Source of the DNA: Mustelus asterias
Lineage: Eukaryota
Assembly: GCF_964213995.1 (NCBI RefSeq)
Contig: NW_027592264.1
Coordinates: 1-59,000, forward strand
Length of the DNA: 59,000 nt
Direction of reading: 5' to 3'
Made by a program: the position numbers and the translations under genes. The notes under the pieces are model-generated. The model searched no databases. It saw only the letters and a list, made by a program, of their open reading frames with translations, and was not told the origin of the DNA. The stretch's first letter is position 1; every line of letters begins with the position of its first letter. Below are positions 1,871 through 54,140 of this stretch, piece after piece.

Positions 1871-2860
1871 ATTGCTGATGAGAATTTTAATTTACTGACT
1901 TGGGAATTAATTCTCAGGAATAGTCATTCTGAAAATGACCATTAAAATGTGTTTTAATTTACCCCATAATTGCAGATTTCAGTTTGCATTTCAAAATTGA
2001 ATTGAGAATGTCTGAGAGCAAATGGTAAAATGAGGTTTGAGACACCAGCTGCAATTATTTTCTGTGACTGATGATACCTTTGTGCCTGTGCAGGAGGTAA
2101 TTCCGCTGCTGTTGTGGCACAAATAAAATGAAGCCTTTCCTAGGAACAGGCCCATGTTAATGGTCACTGTGGTGTTTCATTGGTGGGCAGAGCACATGTG
2201 CCCATTGTGGTAACAACAGAGTCAGTGGGGCTGCACGTCCCCTGACTTGGAAGGAAAATAATTGACTCCTTGACTGTACTCTCAATCTGTACATGGTCTG
2301 GAGGACTGAATCCAGCTGGAGGGAGAGGGAGCTGGGCTCAGAGTGGAGATGGGGCAATGAGTTTGATTTCAGCTCGGGGACAAGAGAGAGAGTGTGTGGG
2401 ATGGGGATTACAGCTCAAGATAAATGAGATAGAGAAATGTTTCGTGGAAACTGAAATTGTCTGTTCTGAATTAGTTTTTTAAAACTCTTTTTGCAGGGAA
2501 CTTGATGAGGAGGATTCACAGACAGGAAACTCAAACTAAACTTCAGATCAAAGTCTGACAGAGCCATTCGATTCATTCTGGCCTGAATATGATTGCTTTT
2601 GACAGTGGAGGGAGAAATCATTCCCTGTTTTGTCAGTGGGAGAAAATTTCAAAATTCAATGTGACAGCAAAAGAACGGAGACACACACACACCCAAGTGA
2701 GAGTGCTCCAGTGAACTGACTGTGGATAGAGCTTTAACAAGTTACATATCCTGAAAGACATTACACCATTCACAGTGGGGAGAAACCATACACATGGTCT
2801 GTATGTGGGTGAGGCTTCAACTAATCATCCAACCTGGAGAGACAGAAGGATACCAGCACC

Positions 2861-3757
2861 ATGGACAAACCGTGGAAATGTGAGGATTGTGGTAAAGGAT
2901 TCAATTATCCATACTTGCTGGAAAACCATAGACACAGTCACACTGGAGAGAGGCCATTCATCTGTTCTGTGTGTGGGAAAGGATTCACTACCTCATCCCA
3001 CCTGCTGTTACACCAGCGAACTCACACTGAGGAGAGGCCGTTCAGCTGCTCCACCTGTGGAAAGGGGTTCTCATGTTCATCCAACCTCAGTGCACATCAG
3101 CGAGTTCATACTGGGGAGAGATCGTTCACCTGCTCCTTGTGTGGGAAGGATTTTGCTGGGCCATCCGGTCTTTGGTCACACCAGCGAATTCACACAGGAG
3201 AGAAGCCATTCACCTGTTCTGTGTGTGGTAAGAGATTCACTCTGTCATCTAACCTGCTGTCACACCAGCGAGTTCACACAGAGGAGAGACCGTTCAGCTG
3301 CACTTCCTGTGGAAAGAGGTTCAGGTCTTCATCCAACCTCAGTACACACAAGCGAGTTCACACTGGGGAAAGGCTGTTCACCTGTTCCACGTGTGGGAGG
3401 GAATTCACCAATTCATCCGGCCTCCTGTCACATCAGCGAATTCACACTGAGGAGAAGCCATTTATTTGCACATACTGTGGAAAGAGTTTCAGGCAGTTAT
3501 CAATCCTCACTGCTCATCAACGCACTCACACTGGGGAGAGACCATTCACTTGCTCCATGTGTGGGAAGGGATTCACTCAGTCTGGCAGCCTGCATTTCCA
3601 TGAGCTCACGCACACTGGGGAGAGGCCATTCACCTGCTCTGTGTGTGGGAAGGGATACACTCGGTCATCCCACTTGCTGACACATCTGCAAGTTCACAAT
3701 TGTCAGCAGGAGTTGGACTTTGCAGTTACTGCAGCTGTTAATCACATCCAGGATTGA
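2861..3757 (+). CDS. C2H2 zinc-finger protein, 10 tandem fingers (ZNF gene 1)
   Basis: 298-aa ORF of CxxC..HxxxH repeats with TGE(R/K)P linkers; strong Kozak ACCATGG. Confidence 0.9.
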   Translation: MDKPWKCEDCGKGFNYPYLLENHRHSHTGERPFICSVCGKGFTTSSHLLLHQRTHTEERPFSCSTCGKGFSCSSNLSAHQRVHTGERSFTCSLCGKDFAGPSGLWSHQRIHTGEKPFTCSVCGKRFTLSSNLLSHQRVHTEERPFSCTSCGKRFRSSSNLSTHKRVHTGERLFTCSTCGREFTNSSGLLSHQRIHTEEKPFICTYCGKSFRQLSILTAHQRTHTGERPFTCSMCGKGFTQSGSLHFHELTHTGERPFTCSVCGKGYTRSSHLLTHLQVHNCQQELDFAVTAAVNHIQD

Positions 3758-4019
3758 TAGTCTGACAATATTTGGTTTGTTTCTGCTGACATTAACAATC
3801 GCTACAACTGGCTGAAGTTTAATGTTCTGAGATGTCACTGATTTTCAGGGCTGCTGTGTCCCTTTTTAAAAGCACCATCTGTGATTTTTTAAATTCAGGA
3901 ACTCTCAACAGGAACTTGTTGATAATAAGTTTATGAACTTTTCCTGAAATCTGAAATTGATGTTTGGTGCAAACTGTACAATTCAGTGTCTGAAAGGTTC
4001 CACTGCTTAAGATTTCCAA

Positions 4020-4290
4020 TTGTCTCCAGACAGGACAGCCAGTGAGATTCTGCAAGTCCAGGAGGCAAGCTGTGGGGGTTACTGTCTGGAGACAATACAC
4101 ATCTCTTTAACCTGTGCTTAATGCTCCCTCCACTCACATTGTTTGTATCTTTAAGACCTGGTTAGCAGTAGAGATTCGCATTCTTATCAGTATTCTGTGA
4201 CTTGATTTTGTGTCTCTGTGCCCTGTTTGAGAGCTCTATCTGATGAAGGAGCAGCGCTCCGAAAGCTAATGGTATTTGCTACCAAATAAA
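4020..4290 (+). mobile_element. Penelope-like element 3' fragment with inverted 5' portion
   Basis: 4020-4083 matches the PLE 3' region in reverse; 4082-4290 matches 9256-9474 in sense. Confidence 0.8.
4236..4272 (+). ncRNA. Minimal type I hammerhead ribozyme motif
   Basis: CUAU-CUGAUGA-A-GGAGC/AGC/GCUCC-GAA-AGCU-A-AUGG: intact core, stem II, palindromic stem III, stem I. Confidence 0.8.
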
Positions 4291-4798
4291 GATATTCATA
4301 CCCAGTCTTGCTCATTTGTGTGGGGGGCTGAATGCCTTTTTGGTGCTGGCAGCTAATTAGTGGAAAGTATCACTCGTGTAACCACGACATAGTCACAGAA
4401 TGAAACAGATTAGTGTTCCCTCTGTATTGTGCAGCCTTGTGATTGTGCTAAAGGCCATCACTTTCAGATCTGAAAAGTGCCTGGGTCAAGGTCAAATTAC
4501 CCCAGAAAGGGACATTTTCTCTCTCATCTGAAGCAACAGGTGAAGCAAATCATTTCACACTGAAACACATCTTCAACGTTGCGGTAGTTTGTTCAGTTAC
4601 ACACTTGGTGGTCACGTGACTCTGGTTGCAGCATTCCTGAGCCTCATTGGAGGGATTCCTCACATGAGCCGAGTATGAGAGTATCTCTGGCCTCCAGTGA
4701 TGCAGCCGCTGAATCTATTCCTGGAAAAAACACATTTGGAATATTGTGATAATGTTGTCTGAATCCATCAGGACAATTTTGTATTCAAGTGTGGAGTG

Positions 4799-6838
4799 GA
4801 TAATGTTCACTGTTTTATATTCGGGTCTGGGGGGGGATAATGTTCACTGTTTTATATTCGGGTCTGGGGGGGATAATGTTCACTGTTTTATATTCGGGTC
4901 TGGGGGGGAATAATGTTCACTGTTTTATATTCGGGTCTGGGGGGATAATGTTCACTGTTTTATATTCGGGTCTGGGGGGGAATAATGTTCACTGTTTTAT
5001 ATTCGGGTCTGGGGGGATAATGTTCACTGTTTTATATTCGGGTCTGGGGGGGATAATGTTCACTGTTTTATATTCGGGTCTGGGGGGGGATAATGTTCAC
5101 TGCTTTATATTCGGGTCTGAGGGATAATGTTCACTGTTTTATATTCGGGTCTGAGGGATAATGTTCACTGTTTTATATTCGGGTCTGGGGGATAATGTTC
5201 ACTGTTTTATATTCGGGTCTGGGGGGGATAATCTTCACTGTTTTATATTCGGTTCTGGGGGGGTTAATGTTCACTGTTTTATATTCCGGTCTGGGGGATA
5301 ATGTTCACTGTTTTATATTCGGGTCTGGGGGGGATAATGTTCACTGTTTTATATTCGGGTCTGGGGGATAATGTTCACTGTTTTATATTTGGGTCTGGGG
5401 GGGATAATGTTCACTGTTTTATATTCGGGTCTGGGGGATAATGTTCACTGTTTTATATTCTGGTCTGGGGGGATAATGTTCACTGTTTTATATTCGGGTC
5501 TGGAGGGGATAATGTTCACTGTTTTATATTCGGGTCTGGGGGGATAATGTTCACTGTTTTATATTCGGGTCTGGGGGGATAATGTTCACTGTTTTATATT
5601 CGGGTCTGGGGGGGATAATATTCACTGTTTTATATTCAGGTCTGGGGGGGGATAATGTTCACTGTTTTATATTCGGGTCTGGGGGGGATAATATTCACTG
5701 TTTTATATTCAGGTCTGGGGGGGGATAATGTTCACTGTTTTATATTCGGGTCTGGGGGGGACAATGTTCACTCTTACATTCGGATCTGGGGGGGATAATG
5801 TTCACTGTTTTATATTCGGGTCTGGGGGGGATAATATTCACTGTTTTATATTCAGGTCTGGGGGGGATAATGTTCACTGTTTTATCTTCGGGTCTGGGGG
5901 GGACAATGTTCACTCTTACATTCGGATCTGGGGGGGATAATGTTCACTGTTTTATATTCGGGTCTGGGGGGGATAATATTCACTGTTTTATATTCAGGTC
6001 TGGGGGGGGATAATGTTCACTCTTTTATATTCGGGTCTGGGGGATAATGTTCACTGTTTTATATTCGGGTCTGGGGGGGATAATGTTCACTGTTTTATAT
6101 TCGGGTCTGGGGCGGCTAATGTTCACTGTTTTATATTCGGGTCTGGGGGGGGGATAATGTTCACTGTTTTATATTCCGGTCTGGAGGATAATGTTCACTG
6201 TTTTATATTCGGGTCTGGGGGGGATAATGTTCACTGTTTTATATTCGGGTCTGGGGGATAATGTTCACTGTTTTATATTCTGGTCTGGGGGGATAATGTT
6301 CACTGTTTTATATTCGTGTCTGGAGGGGATAATGTTCACTGTTTTATATTCGGGTCTGGGGGGATAATGTTCACTGTTTTATATTCGGGTCTGGGGGGAT
6401 AATGTTCACTGTTTTATATTCGGGTCTGGGGGGGATAATGTTCATTGTTTTATATTCGGGTCTGAGGGGGGATAATGTTTACTGTTTTATATTCGGGTCT
6501 GGGGGGGGATAATGTTCACTGTTTTATATTCAGGTCTGGGGGATAATGTTCATTGTTTTATATTTGGGTCGGGGGAATAATGTTCACTGTTTTATATTCG
6601 GGTCTGGGGGGATAATGTTCATTGTTTTATATTTGGGTCTGGGGGGTATAATGTTCGCTGTTTTATATTCGGGTCTGGGGGAAGAATGTTCACTGCTTTA
6701 TATTCAGGTCTGGGGGGATAATGTTCACTGTTTTATATTGGGTCGAGGGGATAATGTTCGCTATTTTATATTCAGGTCTGTGGGGAGAATGTTCACTACT
6801 TTATATTCGGGTCTGGGAGATAATGTTCACTGTCTGGG
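4799..6838. repeat. ~2-kb minisatellite, ~33-40-bp unit with variable G-run
   Basis: ATAATGTTCACTGTTTTATATTCGGGTCT(G)n repeated roughly 55-60 times, degenerating at the right end. Confidence 0.95.
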
Positions 6839-8310: not shown

Positions 8311-8709
8311 TGGGAATTCTGTTCACAAACAGGGCTTATAAAGACACAAACACAATTTATATGAATAATGGTTGGAATGCGAATACTTACAGCTAATCAA
8401 GTCTTTAAGATACAAACAATGTGAGTGGAGAGAGCATCAAGACAGGCTAAAGAGATGTGTATTGTCTCCAGACAGGACAGCCAGTGAAACTCTGCAGGTC
8501 CAGGCAGGCTGTGGGGATTACAAATAGTGTGACATGAACCCAATATCCCGGTTGAGGCCGTCCTCGTGTGCGGAACTTGGCTATCAGTTTCTGCTCAGCG
8601 ACTCTGCGCTGTCATGTGTCGTGAAGGCCGCCTTGGAGAACGCTTAGCCAAATATCAGAGGCCGAATGTCCGTGACCGCTCAAGTGCTCCCCAACAGGTA
8701 GAGAACAGT

Positions 8710-9210
8710 CTACCTGTTCTCCAACAGACCATTGTCCGCAGCAAACTACCCAGCCTTCAGGAGAACAGTGACCATGACACCACACAACCCTGCCACAGCA
8801 ACCTCTGCAAGACGGGCCGGATCATCGACACGGATGCCATCATCTCACGTGAGAACACCATCCACCAGGTACACGGTACAGACTCTTGCAACTCGGCCAA
8901 CGTTGTCTACCTGATACGCTGCAGGAAAGGATGTCCCGAGGCATGGTACATTGGGGAAACCATGCAGATGCTACGACAACGGATGAATGAACACCGCTCG
9001 ACAATCACCAGGCAAGACTGTTCTCTTCCTGTGGGGGAGCACTTCAGCAGTCACGGGCATTCAGCCTTGGATCTTCAGGTAAGCGTTCTCCAAGGCGGCC
9101 TTCACGACACACGACAGCGCAGAGTCGCTGAGCAGAAACTGATAGCCAAGTTCCGCACACATGAGGACGGCCTAAACCGGGATGTTGGATTTATGTCACA
9201 TTATCAGTAA
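8710..9210 (+). pseudogene. Penelope-like GIY-YIG endonuclease C-terminal fragment (Neptune-like Cys motif upstream)
   Basis: NVVYLIRC..WYIGET..LRQRMNEH..VGEHF..AEQKLI..GLN, preceded by PCHSNLCKT; RT part missing (5'-truncated). Confidence 0.85.
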
Positions 9211-9419
9211 CCCCCACAGCTTGCCTCCTGATCTTGCAGAATCTTACAAGCTGTTCTGTCTGGAGACAATACGCATCTCTTTAACCTGTGTTTAATGTTC
9301 CCTCCACCCACATTATCTGTACCTTTAAGACCTGGCTGGCTGTAGAGATTTACATTCTAATTAGTATTCTGTAACTTGATGTTGTGTCTCTGTGCACTTT
9401 TGGAGAACAGATTTTCACT

Positions 9420-9456
9420 CCATCTGACGAAGGAGCAGTGCTCCGAAAGCTTATGG
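9420..9456 (+). ncRNA. Minimal hammerhead ribozyme motif
   Basis: CCAU-CUGACGA-A-GGAGC/AGU/GCUCC-GAA-AGCU-U-AUGG. Confidence 0.8.
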
Positions 9457-10136
9457 TATTTGCTACCAAATAAACCTGTTGGACTTTAACCTGGTGTTGT
9501 GAGACTTCTTACTGTGCTTACCCCAGTCCAACGCCGGCATCTCCACATCCAGGACAGGAAGCAGTGAGCATGGATCTGTGAATCAGCCTCAATCAGCACC
9601 TTCAGGAGAATTGGGAGGGTGAATATTAGATACAGCAGAGTGAGAATGGAGGGAGAGTGTGTGGGATGGAGATTTACAGCTTTTTGGGACTGAAATAGGA
9701 AAGAATGTTCCATAGAAACTAGAATTGTCTGTTCTGACTTTCTATCCTGTACTGACACTGATGACTTTTGTAAATTCATTTTACAGGATATTGAAAGAGG
9801 AATCACAGGCCGAAATCTCAAACGTCACGTCAGATCTGACAGAGTCATATTCCTTGGGAGCTGAATATCATCGGACTTTGAATCGCGAAGGAGAAATGAT
9901 TGTCCAGTTTGTCGATTTGAAAAGAGTTCGACCATCAGTGTGACGGGAAAAGCACCAACACACTGCCACACTCGAGTGAGAGTGTTCTAGTGCTCGGACT
10001 AAAGAGCTTTAACTAGTTACACCGCCTGAATAAATATCACACCATTCACAGCGGGGAGAGACTGTACCCGTGCTGTGTGTGTGGACGAGGCTTGAACTGA
10101 TTGTCCACCCAAGACAGAGGTCAGGACACCTGCACC

Positions 10137-16390: not shown

Positions 16391-17648
16391 AAGGCCTGCA
16401 GAAATTAAGTCTTGTGAGGAACTACTGGAAGAAATAAATCATCCTGTACATGGGAGAGGCAGAAACTGTGAGGACCATCTCCTCCAACCACAGATTCTGT
16501 CTCTCCCGATGTTGCTACATCTGCAGAGACAGAGTCTCAAACTGGAGGAACAGCTTTGCCACCTATTTTGAGAAAAGACTCAGCAGCCTATCAGTGATGT
16601 GTGGAGGAGTTGTGTCTTCCTGCTACAGAACTAGTTTCATAGCAGTGTGAGCCTCAAAAGGAATGAGCCAACCATCGGCAGACCTTTCCCCATTCTGCTG
16701 AACAAGTCTCGATTATTTTTATATATCTCAGGAGGTGGGGTTTACAGCTCAGGAATTTGAGTAACCAGATATTGTGAACATACTTACCAATCACTTGGGT
16801 CGTCACATTAGAAATTGAGATCCATTCATCCAGGTCCATATTCTAAACTGCTTTTATTTGCAGTTGAACGTTCACAGAAAACATACAGAATCCCCGGTCA
16901 GAGCTGATCTCAGCTGGTGGAGTGAGGTTATTGATGGGTTATCAATGTAAATCCACACACAATGAAGATCAGAATCGGGAGAGATTTTTCCTGCTCCACC
17001 GTCTGAACCAGTAAACATCTGATTCAGTTACCTTGTGTCAAATAGTTAGAATTCTCATTTTGGAAAGAGAGTATGGGAGTATTTTTAAAATAAGTTAACA
17101 AAACATATCATTCATAGATTCCAATTTAAAAGATTTAATATATACACAGTCTTCAGTATTTGTGCTATCTTATTCAAAGAAGTAAACTAACAGAAACACA
17201 AAAGGTAATGTTACTACGTGACTACATCACTAATAAAGGAGTTACTGAGAATGGAAAACGATGCCCTGGAAACCAAAAAATAGCCCTTAAAAATCAAAGA
17301 GTAGCTTTCCAGAAAATCTCAATACAAGCATTGAAAATAAATACTTTGTGCCCTGCAGATGGATCTTTCAGAGAATGAATTGTAGATTTTGCCCAAAGAT
17401 CAAATTAGAATTGAAGCAAAAGTTCTTAATTTTATTCTAAACAGGTTCCTGTTGAGAGTTCTTCAATTAAGGGGGAAGATCACTGGTGGTGCTTTTAAAA
17501 AGTGACATTGCAGCCCTGAAAATCAGTGACACTTCCAGAATATTAAATTCCAGCTAGTTATAGGATTTGTTAACATCAACAGAAATAAAATATTGTCAGA
17601 CTGTCAATACTGAACAGCAGCAAAAACAGCAAAATCCAACCCCTGCAG

Positions 17649-19130: not shown

Positions 19131-19296
19131 GATGTGGAGATGCCGGCGTTGGACTGGGGTGAACACAGTAAGAGTTTTAACAACACCAGGTTAAAGTCCA
19201 ACAGGTTTATTTGGTAGCAAACACCTAATGGTAGCTAATGGCATTTGCTACCAAATAAACCTGTTGGACTTTAACCTGGTGTTGTTAAAACTCTTA
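19131..19296. mobile_element. Penelope terminal-repeat insertion as inverted pair with TSD
   Basis: 56-bp inverted arms 19166-19221/19244-19299; direct repeat CTGGGTTCAGTTCT at 19117-19130 and 19297-19310. Confidence 0.85.
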
Positions 19297-19354
19297 CTGG
19301 GTTCAGTTCTCCAGCTGCTGTCTGCAGACTGACAATAAAACCAATGGGTCTTAT

Positions 19355-23331: not shown

Positions 23332-23516
23332 AAAAGCAAATTACTGCGGATGCTGGCGTCTGAAGCCAAGGGAGAAAATGCTGGAAAATCTCAGCAGGTC
23401 TGGCAGCATCTGTAAGGAGAGAAAAGAGCTGATGTTTCTTGTCTAAATGACCCTTTGTCAAAGCTCTGAAACATCAGTTCTTTTCTCTCCATCCAGGTGC
23501 TGCCAGACCTGCTGAG
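23332..23516. mobile_element. Penelope-type terminal repeat (family 2), inverted pair
   Basis: GATGCTGG..CTCAGCAGGTCTGGCAGCATCTG then reverse arm TGCTGCCAGACCTGCTGAG; homologous to 49221-49786. Confidence 0.7.
23427..23465 (-). ncRNA. Variant hammerhead motif with U3-A8 core (degenerate stem II)
   Basis: AGCU-UUGACAA-A-GGGUC..GACAA-GAA-ACAU-C-AGCU. Confidence 0.55.
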
Positions 23517-42582: not shown

Positions 42583-44324
42583 TGTTAAGATATACAGTAT
42601 GTTTTACATTGTAATATTCTAATTGGGATATTATAGAGTGATACATTTCCATTTCTTCCAGGGAATATGTTGTGAAGATCTAGTTTAATAATTCATGTGT
42701 TTCAGAAATATTAATTTCGGATTTTTAAAAAAATGTAACAACTGGAAAACCTGGGTTGAGAATCTGATAAAAACACCCTGAGGGAATTTGCAGTCACAAG
42801 GTGTGGCCCATGTTGGTTTGAGAAGTCAAAGCGAGAAGGGTAAGAACAAGTGTAACACGGCAGCTGGGCTCTTTTAGCTGGAGACATTGGGTCTGACAAT
42901 TTTTTTCCTGTCTTTGTTCGAGAGGGGAATTCACGCAGACCTCAAGAAAAAAGGTTTGGTTCTGAAACTAAAAGCTAATTAATTTAAACATCTTTTGGAC
43001 AGCTGTGGGAGTGGGAGCTGTGAACCAGCTGTGGGACCAGGAGCTGTGAACCAGCTGTGGGACCGGGAGCTGTGAACCAGCTGTGGGAGTGGGAGCTGTG
43101 AACCAGCTGTGGGAGTGGGAGCTGTGAACCAGCTGTGGGAGTGGGAGCTGTGAACCAGCCGTGGGACCAGGAGCTGTGAACCAGCTGTGGAACCGAGAGC
43201 TGTGAACCAGCTGTGGGAGTGGGAGCTGTGAACCAGCTGTGGGACCGGGAGCTGTGAACCAGCTGTGGGACCAGGAGCTGTGAACCAGCTGTGGGAGCGG
43301 GAGCTGTGAACCAGCTGTGGGAGCGGGAGCTGTGAACCAGCTGTGGGAGTGGGAGCTGTGAACCAGCTGTGGGAGTGGGAGCTGTGAACCAGCTGTGGGA
43401 GTGGGAGCTGTGAACCAGCTGTGGGACCAGGAGCTGTGAACCAGCTGTGGAACCGAGAGCTGTGAACCAGCTGTGGGAGTGGGAGCTGTGAACCAGCTGT
43501 GGGACCGGGAGCTGTGAACCAGCTGTGGGACCAGGAGCTGTGAACCAGCTGTGGGAGCGGGAGCTGTGAACCAGCTGTGGGAGCGGGAGCTGTGAACCAG
43601 CTGTGGGAGCGGGAGCTGTGAACCAGCTGTGGGAGCGGGAGCTGTGAACCAGCTGTGGGAGCGGGAGCTGTGAACCAGCTGTGGGAGCGGGAGCTGTGAA
43701 CCAGCTGTGGGAGCGGGAGCTGTGAACCAGCTGTGAGACCAGAAGCCGAGGAGGTCATTAGGAACCATGGGTGTTCCCAATGTTTAAATCCCCCAGCAAG
43801 AAGGCAGTGAAGCCCATGCTTGGATTGAGGAGTCCATGTTTTGAGTCAATTTTGAAATCTCAAAGGAAAGTTGGAGAGTTGTTTAGCCGAAAGCTAATAG
43901 AAGGATCCTCATGAAATCTTGGAGCCTGGAGAATAGCTGGAATACTGAGGAGAATTAAAGTGAATTCTGGGAGCTTTGACATACCTTTGGGATTTGTCCC
44001 AGGAACAGAAGTGAATGTACATTCAAGATATTAAGTATAAGGGCATTCTTGTCGAGGAGTAAGGGTTTAAAAAGTACAAAAAAGGAAAAATGCTGCAAAA
44101 CCTCAGCAGGTCTGGCAGCATCTGTAGAGAGTGAAAACAGAGTTCATGTTTTGAGTCAGAACTGAGTTTACAGAATAAATCTTTACAAAATATAATTCAT
44201 CGAGCTGGTTTTTAATATTCTGTTTATATTCAGTAAAGTTTGATTTTGTTTAAAAACCTGGAATCTTGTGATGGGTGTTTGGATTTCTCACTGAACGTTA
44301 ATGTTCTTGACCCGAATTATAACA
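42583..44324 (+). mobile_element. Possible solo LTR-like element containing the 26-bp minisatellite
   Basis: Begins TGTTA and ends TAACA, interrupts a CR1 tail; no TSD found. Confidence 0.3.
43001..43735. repeat. 26-bp minisatellite (~28 units) with 260-bp higher-order repeat
   Basis: AGCTGTGGGAG(C/T)GGGAGCTGTGAACC; rare variant AACCGAG at 43191 and 43451. Confidence 0.95.
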
Positions 44325-51704: not shown

Positions 51705-54140
51705 CATAGAAACATGCATAGAAAATAGAATCAGGAATAGGCCATTCGGCCCTTCAAGCCTGCTCCACCATTCATTATTATCATGGCTGATCATCAAAAT
51801 CAATATCCTGATCCTGCCTCTTCTCCCCCACCCCTCCTCATCCATATCCCTTGATACCTTTAGCCCCAAGAGCCAAATCTACTTCCTTCCTGAAATCCTT
51901 CGAGGAGCAGTGCTCCGAAAGCTTATGGCTTTTGCTACCAAATAAACCTGTTGGACTTTAACCTGGTGTTGTGAGACTTCTTACTAGATGGAATTTAACA
52001 CAGACAAACGTGAGGTGATGTAATTTGGAAGGTCTACTGCAGAAGGAAAGTATACAGTAAATGCTAGAGTCCTTAGAAATGTTGGCGTACAGAGGGATTT
52101 AAGTGTGCAGATCCACAGTACCCTGAACGTGGCAACTCAGGTGGACAAAGTGGTCAAGAGGGCGAATCGCATGCTGGTCTTAAATCGGTCGAGACGCTGA
52201 GTATAAGAATTGGGAAAACATGTTGCAGCTGTATAAGACTTTGGTTATGCTGACCCTAGCAACTTCCCTACTACCTACATTAGGCTCAGTAGTCTATAGT
52301 TCCCCATTTTCTCGCTTCCTCCCTTTTTGAATCATGGGATATTCTTTTGTGAATTCAGAAGCAAAGTACGAATTTAGTTCCTCAGCCACTTCTTTATTCC
52401 CCGTTATGAATTCTCCTGTTTCTGACTGTAAAGGGCCTACATTCGTTTTGTCAACCTTTTTCTCTTTACATACCTATAGAACCTTTTACACTCAGTTTTT
52501 ATGTTCCCCACTAGCTTACTTTCATATTCTAATTTCTCCTTCTGAACCAATTCCTTGGTCCTCCTTTGCTGTATTGTAAACTGCTCCCAATCCTCAGGTC
52601 TTTTGCTTTTTCTTGCCAATTTTTATGCTTCTTCTTGGAATCTAATGCTCTCTCTAATTTCCCTTGGAAGCAATGGTTTGGCTACAGTTCCTTTTCCACT
52701 CTTGTGCCAAATAGGAGTAAACAACTTTAAGTTCACCTACTTGTTCCTTAAATGCCTACCGTGGGTGGCACAGTGGCATAGTGGTTCGCAATGCTGCCGG
52801 GTTCAATTCCTGGCTTGGGTCACTGTCTCTGTGGAGTTTGCATGTTCTCCCCGTGTCCACGTGGGTTTCCTCCGGGTGCTCCGGTTTCCTCCCAAATTCT
52901 GAAAGACGTGTTGTTAGATGCATTGACCCGAACAGGCGCCGGACTGTGGCGACGAGGGGAATTTCACAGTAACTTCATTGCAGTGTTAATGTCAGCCTTA
53001 CTTGTGACTAATAAACTTTAACATTGTCTGTCCACTGTCCTTCCTTTCAGTCATGTTTCCCAGTCCATCATAGCCAATTCATGCCTCAATCCATTATAGT
53101 TACCTTTACTGAAATTCAGGACTCTGGTGTCAGAATCAACTACATCATTATCCACTTTGACAAAGAATTCTATCATATTATGGTTGCTCATCCCCAAGGG
53201 TTCTCTCACAACTAGATTGTCAATCCTTTCTCATTGCACAATACCCAGTTCAAGATGGCATGCTCCCTTAGCTCCTCAAAAGTATTGGGCCAGAAGACCA
53301 CTCCAAAAATTCCTCCTCTATTGTAATGTGATTAATTTGATCACCCAATCTGTATGCAGATTAAAGTCACCTATAATCACAGATATTTATTTAACACATG
53401 CATCTCTGATTTCCTGTCTAATGCTTTTCCCAACATTACCATTAATTTGGTAGTCTGTATACCACACCCACAAATGTTTTTTGCCCCTTGGTGTGGCTTA
53501 ACTTGACCCATACATATTCCACATATCATCCTTAATTAACAATGCAACTCCACCATGTTTTTGTTTATGTCTGTCCTTCCTAAACACTGAATAGCCCTCA
53601 ATGTTTAGTTCCCATCCTTGGTCACCTTGGAGCTATGTCTCTGTAGTCCCAACTGTATTATACCCCTTTACATCTAACTGTGCAACAAATTCATCCATTT
53701 TATTTTGAATGCTCCAAGCGTTCATGTACAAAACCTTCAGGCTAGTCCTTTTAACATTTGTTGTCCAGTTCCTACCATTTTTTACTGTGTCCGTATCTGA
53801 TTCTGGCTCTCAATTCTCTGCCTATCACTTTTCTTATTCTTCTTGCTGTCTTTTTCTCTTGTTCTTGGTACCCTCTGCTCTGAATCCTTACATAGGTTTC
53901 CATCTCCCTGCCATTTTAGTTTAAACCTTCTCAATGACTCAACAAGTACACCCCCAACCCCCCAAGCACATCAGTCCTGGCCCTGTCCAGTTTGTACTGG
54001 TCCCACCTTCCCCAGAACCAGTCGCAATGTCCCAGGAATCTGAAACCCTGCCTCTCACATCATCTTTTCAGCCAGGTATTCACCCAATATATCCTGCTGT
54101 TTCGACTCTGAATAGTACATGGCACTGGGAGTAATCCTGA
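51705..54140. mobile_element. Nested CR1 fragments with Penelope terminal repeat (51901-51985, truncated hammerhead) and SINE (52760-53022)
   Basis: CR1 tail minus 51705-51900; GGAGCAGTGCTCCGAAAGCTTATGG; CR1 plus 51986-52250; degenerate CR1 minus 52255-54140. Confidence 0.75.

Follow-up and report, generated by a model that had tools for sequence, protein, structure and literature searches.

A Penelope-derived hammerhead motif behind a zinc-finger gene of Mustelus asterias, probably an inert passenger

Can a hammerhead motif that arrived with a transposable element (TE) cut the mRNA of the gene behind which it lies? The question is raised by the first of seven C2H2 zinc-finger (ZNF) genes that stand among LINE and Penelope-like fragments in 59 kb of Mustelus asterias DNA; this whole stretch of 59,000 nt is called the window here. 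The original prediction placed a hammerhead in the 3' UTR of this gene, just upstream of an AATAAA donated by a Penelope repeat, and proposed that the two might form a TE-sensing switch. Our analysis suggests that the motif is of a known class and probably an inert passenger, with no useful cutting of gene 1 RNA. Gene 1 has these parts:

2861 to 3757, plus strand: coding exon of ZNF gene 1, 298 aa with 10 C2H2 fingers
GT donor at 1221 and acceptor AG at 2495-2496, plus strand: splice sites of gene 1, placed from sequence only; a predicted upstream non-coding exon would end at the donor

Sequence comparison indicates that gene 1 is a member of a young multi-copy ZNF family, and the ORF is intact in all four copies of the gene-1 type. 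A 36-bp minisatellite of about 58 copies (window 4777-6833) belongs to the duplicated ZNF unit. Elsewhere in the window we saw a 26-bp tandem array of 28 copies (43000-43735) with long open frames on both strands, and a long hairpin (23405-23501) whose weak match to a microRNA family fell far under the gathering score.

The hammerhead and the element that carries it

The motif and the Penelope sequences around it are:

4236 to 4272, plus strand: minimal type I hammerhead; stem I 4236-4239 with 4269-4272, core 4240-4246, stem II 4248-4260
4082 to 4290, plus strand: sense Penelope pseudo-LTR arm, 84% identical to window 9256-9474 over 219 nt and ending at AATAAA
4285 to 4290, plus strand: AATAAA of the Penelope end, the sole AATAAA or ATTAAA from the stop (3757) to 4800
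4019 to 4084, minus strand: remnant of an antisense Penelope arm, 91% identical to window 9205-9270
8641 to 9549, plus strand: reference copy of the same element, with a GIY-YIG remnant, a pseudo-LTR with a hammerhead at 9424 and a complete tail

Followed position by position from 4240 to 4268, the hammerhead core is intact, as had been claimed. CUGAUGA at 4240-4246 supplies C3, U4, G5, A6, N7, G8 and A9, and an extra unpaired A (A4247), which is an A in 61 of 62 sampled element copies, lies between positions 9 and 10.1. The 5-bp stem II (4248-4260) begins with the G10.1-C11.1 pair (G4248-C4260), the GAAA is complete (G12, A13, A14 and A15.1 at 4261-4264, with U16.1 at 4267), and a palindromic AGCU at 4264-4267 (15.2-16.2) replaces helix III. 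H17 is A4268, and the predicted cut had been correctly placed between 4268 and 4269; 16 nt separate it from the AATAAA. Stem I has 4 bp, one of them a U.G where the parent has C-G, and 10 nt have been deleted just 5' of it, between 4234 and 4235. A type III fold using the upstream AGCUC (4232-4236) was rejected, because its loop would have just 3 nt and stem I would be absent.

The sampled hammerheads, 62 copies from 60 loci of contig C1, show stem I covarying in the family: pair 1 is C-G in 34 and U-A in 25 of the 62, pair 2 is standard in 58 and pair 3 in 59, while pair 4 is often open. One exact narrow core pattern matched the genome 41,279 times, or once per 89 kb, and the reversed pattern 0 times. 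This and the covariation at pair 1 argue that the motif is no chance match. Judged by its sequence, the stretch at 4236-4272 is the minimal hammerhead that has been published for the ends of Penelope-like elements, a known motif class. An Rfam scan of the window gave 23 matches at E values up to 1, none of them a hammerhead family.

Minimal hammerheads (min-HHR) sit in the pseudo-LTRs of metazoan Penelope-like elements (Cervera and De la Pena 2014, PMC4209133, of which part was available to us). As described there, they share with the gene-1 copy the core, the extra nucleotide before stem II, the G10.1-C11.1 pair, the palindromic 15.2-16.2 positions without helix III, a 4-bp helix I, the pseudo-LTR location and an existence as thousands of scattered single copies. 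The gene-1 copy differs from the min-HHRs of that account in ending at the AATAAA, in its one U.G in helix I and in its place in a predicted host 3' UTR, and its helix II of 5 bp is shorter than the 7-8 bp given for the Schistosoma families (PMC4209133).

The AATAAA at 4285 and the hammerhead had both been ascribed to Penelope, and the 84% match to a repeat behind a GIY-YIG remnant bears this out. That endonuclease remnant spans 8533-9210, with the ORF that ends at 9210 preceding the pseudo-LTR. This ORF matched PF01541 at E 7e-4 and 20.3 bits, under the cut-off of 22.6, and the longer frame gave no match at E 0.001. In the available text of PMC8557442, the mark of the Neptune clade is a CX2-5CxxC linker before the GIY-YIG motif; here, in one degraded copy, the linker has two cysteines in that spacing and the third position is not a cysteine. 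At least 66,125 tail ends of the element family were counted in 3.68 Gb, and the window holds five of the family's hammerhead cores. An AATAAA lies within 24 nt after the cut in 57 of the 62 sampled copies, at 16 or 18 nt in 55 of them, so a hammerhead followed by AATAAA is the normal anatomy of the element.

Insertions at one base behind the ZNF genes

Two features record how the motif came to its present place:

4288 to 4300, plus strand: right copy of a 13-bp target-site duplication, host sequence sharing the last three A's of the AATAAA
4019 to 4021, plus strand: junction left by the loss of 908 nt from the parent layout, with 3-nt microhomology

We compared 55 paralogous sites, comprising all 50 exact matches to the junction pattern and 5 variants. 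Thirteen are empty and have the 13-bp target in a single copy, 7 are of type A, 4 of the gene-1 type, and 31 hold other insertions (B 4, C 13, D 1, E 1, F 9, H 3). Type A is a 570-nt inverted insertion, with an antisense and a sense arm, a 13-bp target duplication and a one-sided tail, about 0.9 kb past the stop. Gene 1 has the same inversion joint and the same right end at AATAAA, minus 908 and 10 nt. Lost in the 908-nt deletion were about 620 nt of host flank, in which CATAAA, TATAAA and AGTAAA had stood, together with the left target duplication and the greater part of the antisense arm.

The sequences indicate that the gene-1 layout is the product of an inverted insertion with a 13-bp duplication and a later deletion of 908 nt. 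A Penelope-like end would have inserted in inverted form behind a young multi-copy ZNF gene, and the deletion would then have brought the motif to 0.5 kb from the stop; it now lies 482 nt past it, compared with 1005-1586 nt in the remaining paralogs with a sense motif. Descent from type A is drawn from the inversion joint and right end common to both types and from the 5-7 differences in 266 nt, and not from a tree. The flank tree, built from 43 of the 55 sites (those with the ZNF UTR, leaving out 12), is a star-like burst in which the gene-1 type is not joined to type A and type C is not one clade. The four gene-1-type copies are about 0.1% apart, and some of them may be assembly duplicates.

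An intact sense hammerhead is kept at 18 of the 55 sites and lacking at 37. Among the 43 paralogs that have the ZNF UTR, 17 carry it, as do 16 of the 31 with an ORF of 8 or more fingers; in type C it is gone from 12 of 13 copies and kept in 1. Type C copies (L016-L018, L021, L023, L025, L028, L036, L037, L042) show small inversions or deletions at the hairpin centre, with the hammerhead broken in one or both arms. In nine copies (L031, L032, L034, L035, L040, L045, L047-L049) a 57-nt Penelope end and the family's downstream flank are fused to a ZNF promoter-like repeat array, and the breakpoint of that rearrangement is the Penelope end.

The same base has been used again and again. Told apart by their ends, tail side and subfamily sequence, the insertions represent at least five independent events (A/B/D, C, E, F, H), a number that rises to as many as seven if A, B and D are counted apart. 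The hotspot at 4288-4300 (paralogs L012-L066) is filled at 42 of 55 sites, in both tail orientations and by different subfamilies. From the density of tail ends in the genome, the expectation for one base in 55 copies is about 0.001.

The ZNF site reads CTG-N17-CAG, and the same spaced palindrome recurs at other insertions of the family, sampled from the first 2.6 Mb of one contig. CAG occupied flank positions 13-21 in 33 of 64 sampled ends (shuffle mean 5.5, maximum 14), CTG lay no more than 8 nt ahead of the duplication in 21 of 29 (shuffle mean 2.2, maximum 8), and both were found in 14 of 29, always spaced by 16 or 17 nt. Among the 64 ends the flanks of L081, L088 and the first of L082 were doubtful; L081 and L088 were left out of the CTG count, which kept 29 of 31, and none was left out of the CAG count. 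The 'AT' right after the tail was not scored as a target motif, as it often resembles element sequence. Genome-wide, flank position 15 carried CAG 11,059 times and CTG 556 times. It seems likely, then, that the endonuclease favoured a site matching the spaced CTG...CAG palindrome. As CTG-N17-CAG occurs about once per 1000 bp, this preference amounts to an enrichment of about 500-fold and raises the expectation to about 0.5 hits; the remainder is unexplained by the motif. Gene conversion between paralogs is likely, and some of the empty sites could be precise excisions between the duplications.

Upstream of the gene 3 coding exon (window 19131-19299) lies a 165-nt inverted Penelope insertion with a 14-nt duplication and the target CTG-N16-CAG. 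Several sampled insertions share apparently the same two sites of a LINE repeat, which we take to be CR1 (L067, L094, L096, L076, L082).

The two-armed insertions have precedents. Inverted EN+ Penelope-like insertions, as far as the accessible text of PMC8557442 and PMC3846280 describes them, likewise have inverted truncated arms and target duplications of about 10-14 bp, with an optional tail of 30-40 bp on one side; they differ in that here one base in a host gene family was reused, of which we found no case in the literature searched. The Anolis Poseidon element PAc (Frangieh et al. 2024, PMC11167929, known to us in part) also has a pseudo-LTR hammerhead and two end points that define its tail, and both of its target strands are cut and extended, which fits the insertions here. 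Its reported preference is for an ATT motif, unlike the spaced CTG...CAG. Our literature search, with most subscription papers outside it, turned up neither a report of a Penelope hammerhead within a host 3' UTR nor one of a spaced CTG...CAG target. Since the two arms face outwards, the arm distal to the upstream gene would always be the sense one, and any such inverted insertion, in either orientation, would leave a sense hammerhead 16-18 nt before an AATAAA.

The predicted 3' UTR and the prospects of cleavage

Cleavage could matter to gene 1 only if its mRNA reaches the motif, and here the 4285 signal has an upstream competitor:

3924 to 3929, plus strand: AATAAG variant hexamer, aligned with the gene 3 AATAAA at 17431-17436 (minus strand)
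4315 to 4345, plus strand: U/GU-rich tracts in host DNA, 25-55 nt after the AATAAA, a putative downstream poly(A) element

The alignment of the AATAAG at 3924 with gene 3's AATAAA had been pointed out before, and it held; so did the statement that no AATAAA or ATTAAA stands between the stop and 4285, which our scan of 3757-4800 confirmed. The variant hexamers ahead of 4285 are TTTAAA (3865, 3888), AATAAG (3924) and AATACA (4094). Most paralogs have CATAAA at about +340, TATAAA at about +610 and AGTAAA at about +750, all deleted in gene 1, and in the stretch scanned, 8 of the 11 empty paralogs that have the UTR show no canonical signal. The loss of a canonical AATAAA is thus common to paralogs free of any hammerhead, a family trait not tied to the ribozyme.

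With the three variant signals gone, the Penelope AATAAA may have become the poly(A) signal of the gene, putting the motif into the 3' UTR. It is the first canonical signal and has U/GU-rich tracts behind it, and we consider it about an even call whether gene 1 mRNA includes the motif by way of 4285. A somewhat less probable outcome, which overlaps with the passenger reading, is that the mRNA ends at about 3945-3960, at the ancestral AATAAG site, and leaves the hammerhead outside the transcript. AATAAG is a recognised weak poly(A) variant, the site aligns with gene 3's AATAAA, and U/GU-rich sequence has been kept behind it. Gene-1-family paralogs read AATAAG or CATAAG there, however, and several with intact ORFs have CATAAG and so probably end further down, while the 4285 signal is canonical with good downstream tracts. 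One contig of sequencing run X9 (kind guessed or unknown) equals 3685-4037 with 0 differences, extends only 16 letters past the deletion junction and does not inform the mRNA end; among contigs of runs X1, X2, X3 and X9, of guessed or unknown kind, none bridges the hammerhead to unique flank. In ZNF gene 6 the first AATAAA (+334) likewise comes from a sense Penelope end (window 51903-51985), where the hammerhead lacks the 5' half of its core.

If the motif is transcribed, would it cut? The expectation that a minimal motif does not suffice by itself holds here, as a single copy is unable to form helix III. Such hammerhead variants are said to cleave as dimers. In the available part of PMC4209133, a single minimal hammerhead gave no detectable cleavage and dimers had low activity. 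The hammerhead of the anole element cleaved only with the element's protein, for which a binding site within the first 172 nt of the ORF was proposed, and no RNA-seq reads ended at the hammerhead's site (PMC11167929). The gene-1 copy, unlike PAc as described there, lacks the region downstream of the hammerhead: it stops 22 nt after the cut, and the sense arm (4082-4290) is without the tail region of the element.

We calculated duplex energies with the active pairs enforced and the flanks free, in a nearest-neighbour model that ignores tertiary contacts of the core and help from protein. Across four flank lengths, the active trans duplex of gene 1 and a partner came to between -2.0 and +1.2 kcal/mol relative to free monomers, and it lay 6-9 kcal/mol above the unconstrained misfolded dimers. 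Within the limits of the model, these values suggest no binding at cellular concentrations without help. Canonical pairs scored about the same as gene 1 with its partner, and the pairing in which the 9424 copy would cut gene 1 scored no worse than they did. In a UTR of 558 nt the predicted probability was 0.002 for stem I and 0.16 for stem II; the 9424 copy folds as poorly in a long context. The motif probably stays uncut: without a second copy there is no helix III, no stability is predicted for the trans duplex, and the copy lacks the downstream part of the element, the proposed docking place of a relative's protein.

A small amount of accidental, unselected cleavage is nevertheless conceivable, though we think it unlikely: a minor fraction of the mRNA would be cut at times of plentiful Penelope RNA and protein, such as in the germline, or by read-through to the 9424 copy, the next sense hammerhead, 5.2 kb downstream of that of gene 1. 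The core, the palindrome and the 3' strand of stem I are intact, and because the stem I change lies on the 5' strand, which a partner would replace, the scissile half of gene 1 is still a valid substrate. The antisense arm is also gone; in type A it locks the motif in a hairpin in which all nine junction positions are predicted to be paired. The family numbers at least 66,125 tail ends, and protein-assisted cleavage has been published for a relative (PMC11167929). The trans duplex, with no predicted stability, would have to compete with stronger misfolded dimers, however, stems I and II have low predicted probabilities in the UTR, and nothing is left of the element 3' of the AATAAA. The dimer geometry also implies that a G5A mutant would fail as a control for trans cutting, since the partner RNA would supply the catalytic core.

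Selection and what the locus means

The TE-sensing switch had been offered as a speculation. In a selected form of it, Penelope RNA would pair with the UTR motif, the poly(A) end would be cut off and the ZNF protein lowered while the element is active. Its cut site, between the stop and the first canonical signal, is placed as in the mammalian Clec2 mRNAs, whose discontinuous hammerhead would likewise remove the tail (PMC6765202, a review seen in part). In the review's account, the Clec2 ribozyme reaches its fold in cis, cuts in vitro and reduces expression. The gene-1 motif, as modelled here, differs in that it is without helix III, would need a partner and is not kept among paralogs.

Against type A, 2 of the 37 nt of the motif have changed, one weakening stem I and one at the neutral N7. 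The corresponding counts are 5-7 of 266 for the whole Penelope piece, 4-5 of 263 for the UTR upstream of it and 13-16 of 756 for coding DNA. On these small numbers the motif shows no sign of constraint, having apparently changed at least as fast as its flanks (about 2-3%), although weak selection could go undetected with just two changes in 37 nt. The 908-nt deletion could be read in favour of a switch and against a passenger, as it unmasks the motif and acts as a domestication step would, removing the antisense arm and three variant signals. The layout occurs, however, in only 4 of the 55 sites, which are near-identical and may in part be assembly duplicates; a sense motif is lacking in 15 of 31 intact paralogs, and about 50 close paralogs would buffer any effect. 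Lowering a putative repressor while the element is active would also have the wrong sign for host defence. With this distribution, no sign of conservation and a duplex predicted at -2 to +1 kcal/mol, the switch claim is not supported, and we regard it as the least probable of the readings considered. Scarcely better placed, and still very improbable, is a version in which the Penelope endonuclease, with its sequence preference, repeatedly places cassettes of hammerhead and AATAAA at the one base; in four copies the deletion would have freed the motif from the antisense arm and turned its AATAAA into the poly(A) signal of the gene, and these mRNAs would be cut in trans by Penelope RNA and protein, coupling ZNF dosage to element activity.

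As the passenger that it most likely is, the motif is of little import in itself, one of tens of thousands of copies of a class published in 2014. The ZNF family may be of more use. Its roughly 55 near-identical gene copies, in which one base is empty or bears a hairpin-locked, broken or freed hammerhead, form a natural test set. Such a series bears on whether dispersed Penelope hammerheads cut host mRNA in vivo, a question left open by PMC4209133 in the part available to us. The one-base hotspot, in turn, is a host-gene example of the spaced-palindrome target preference of the element family.
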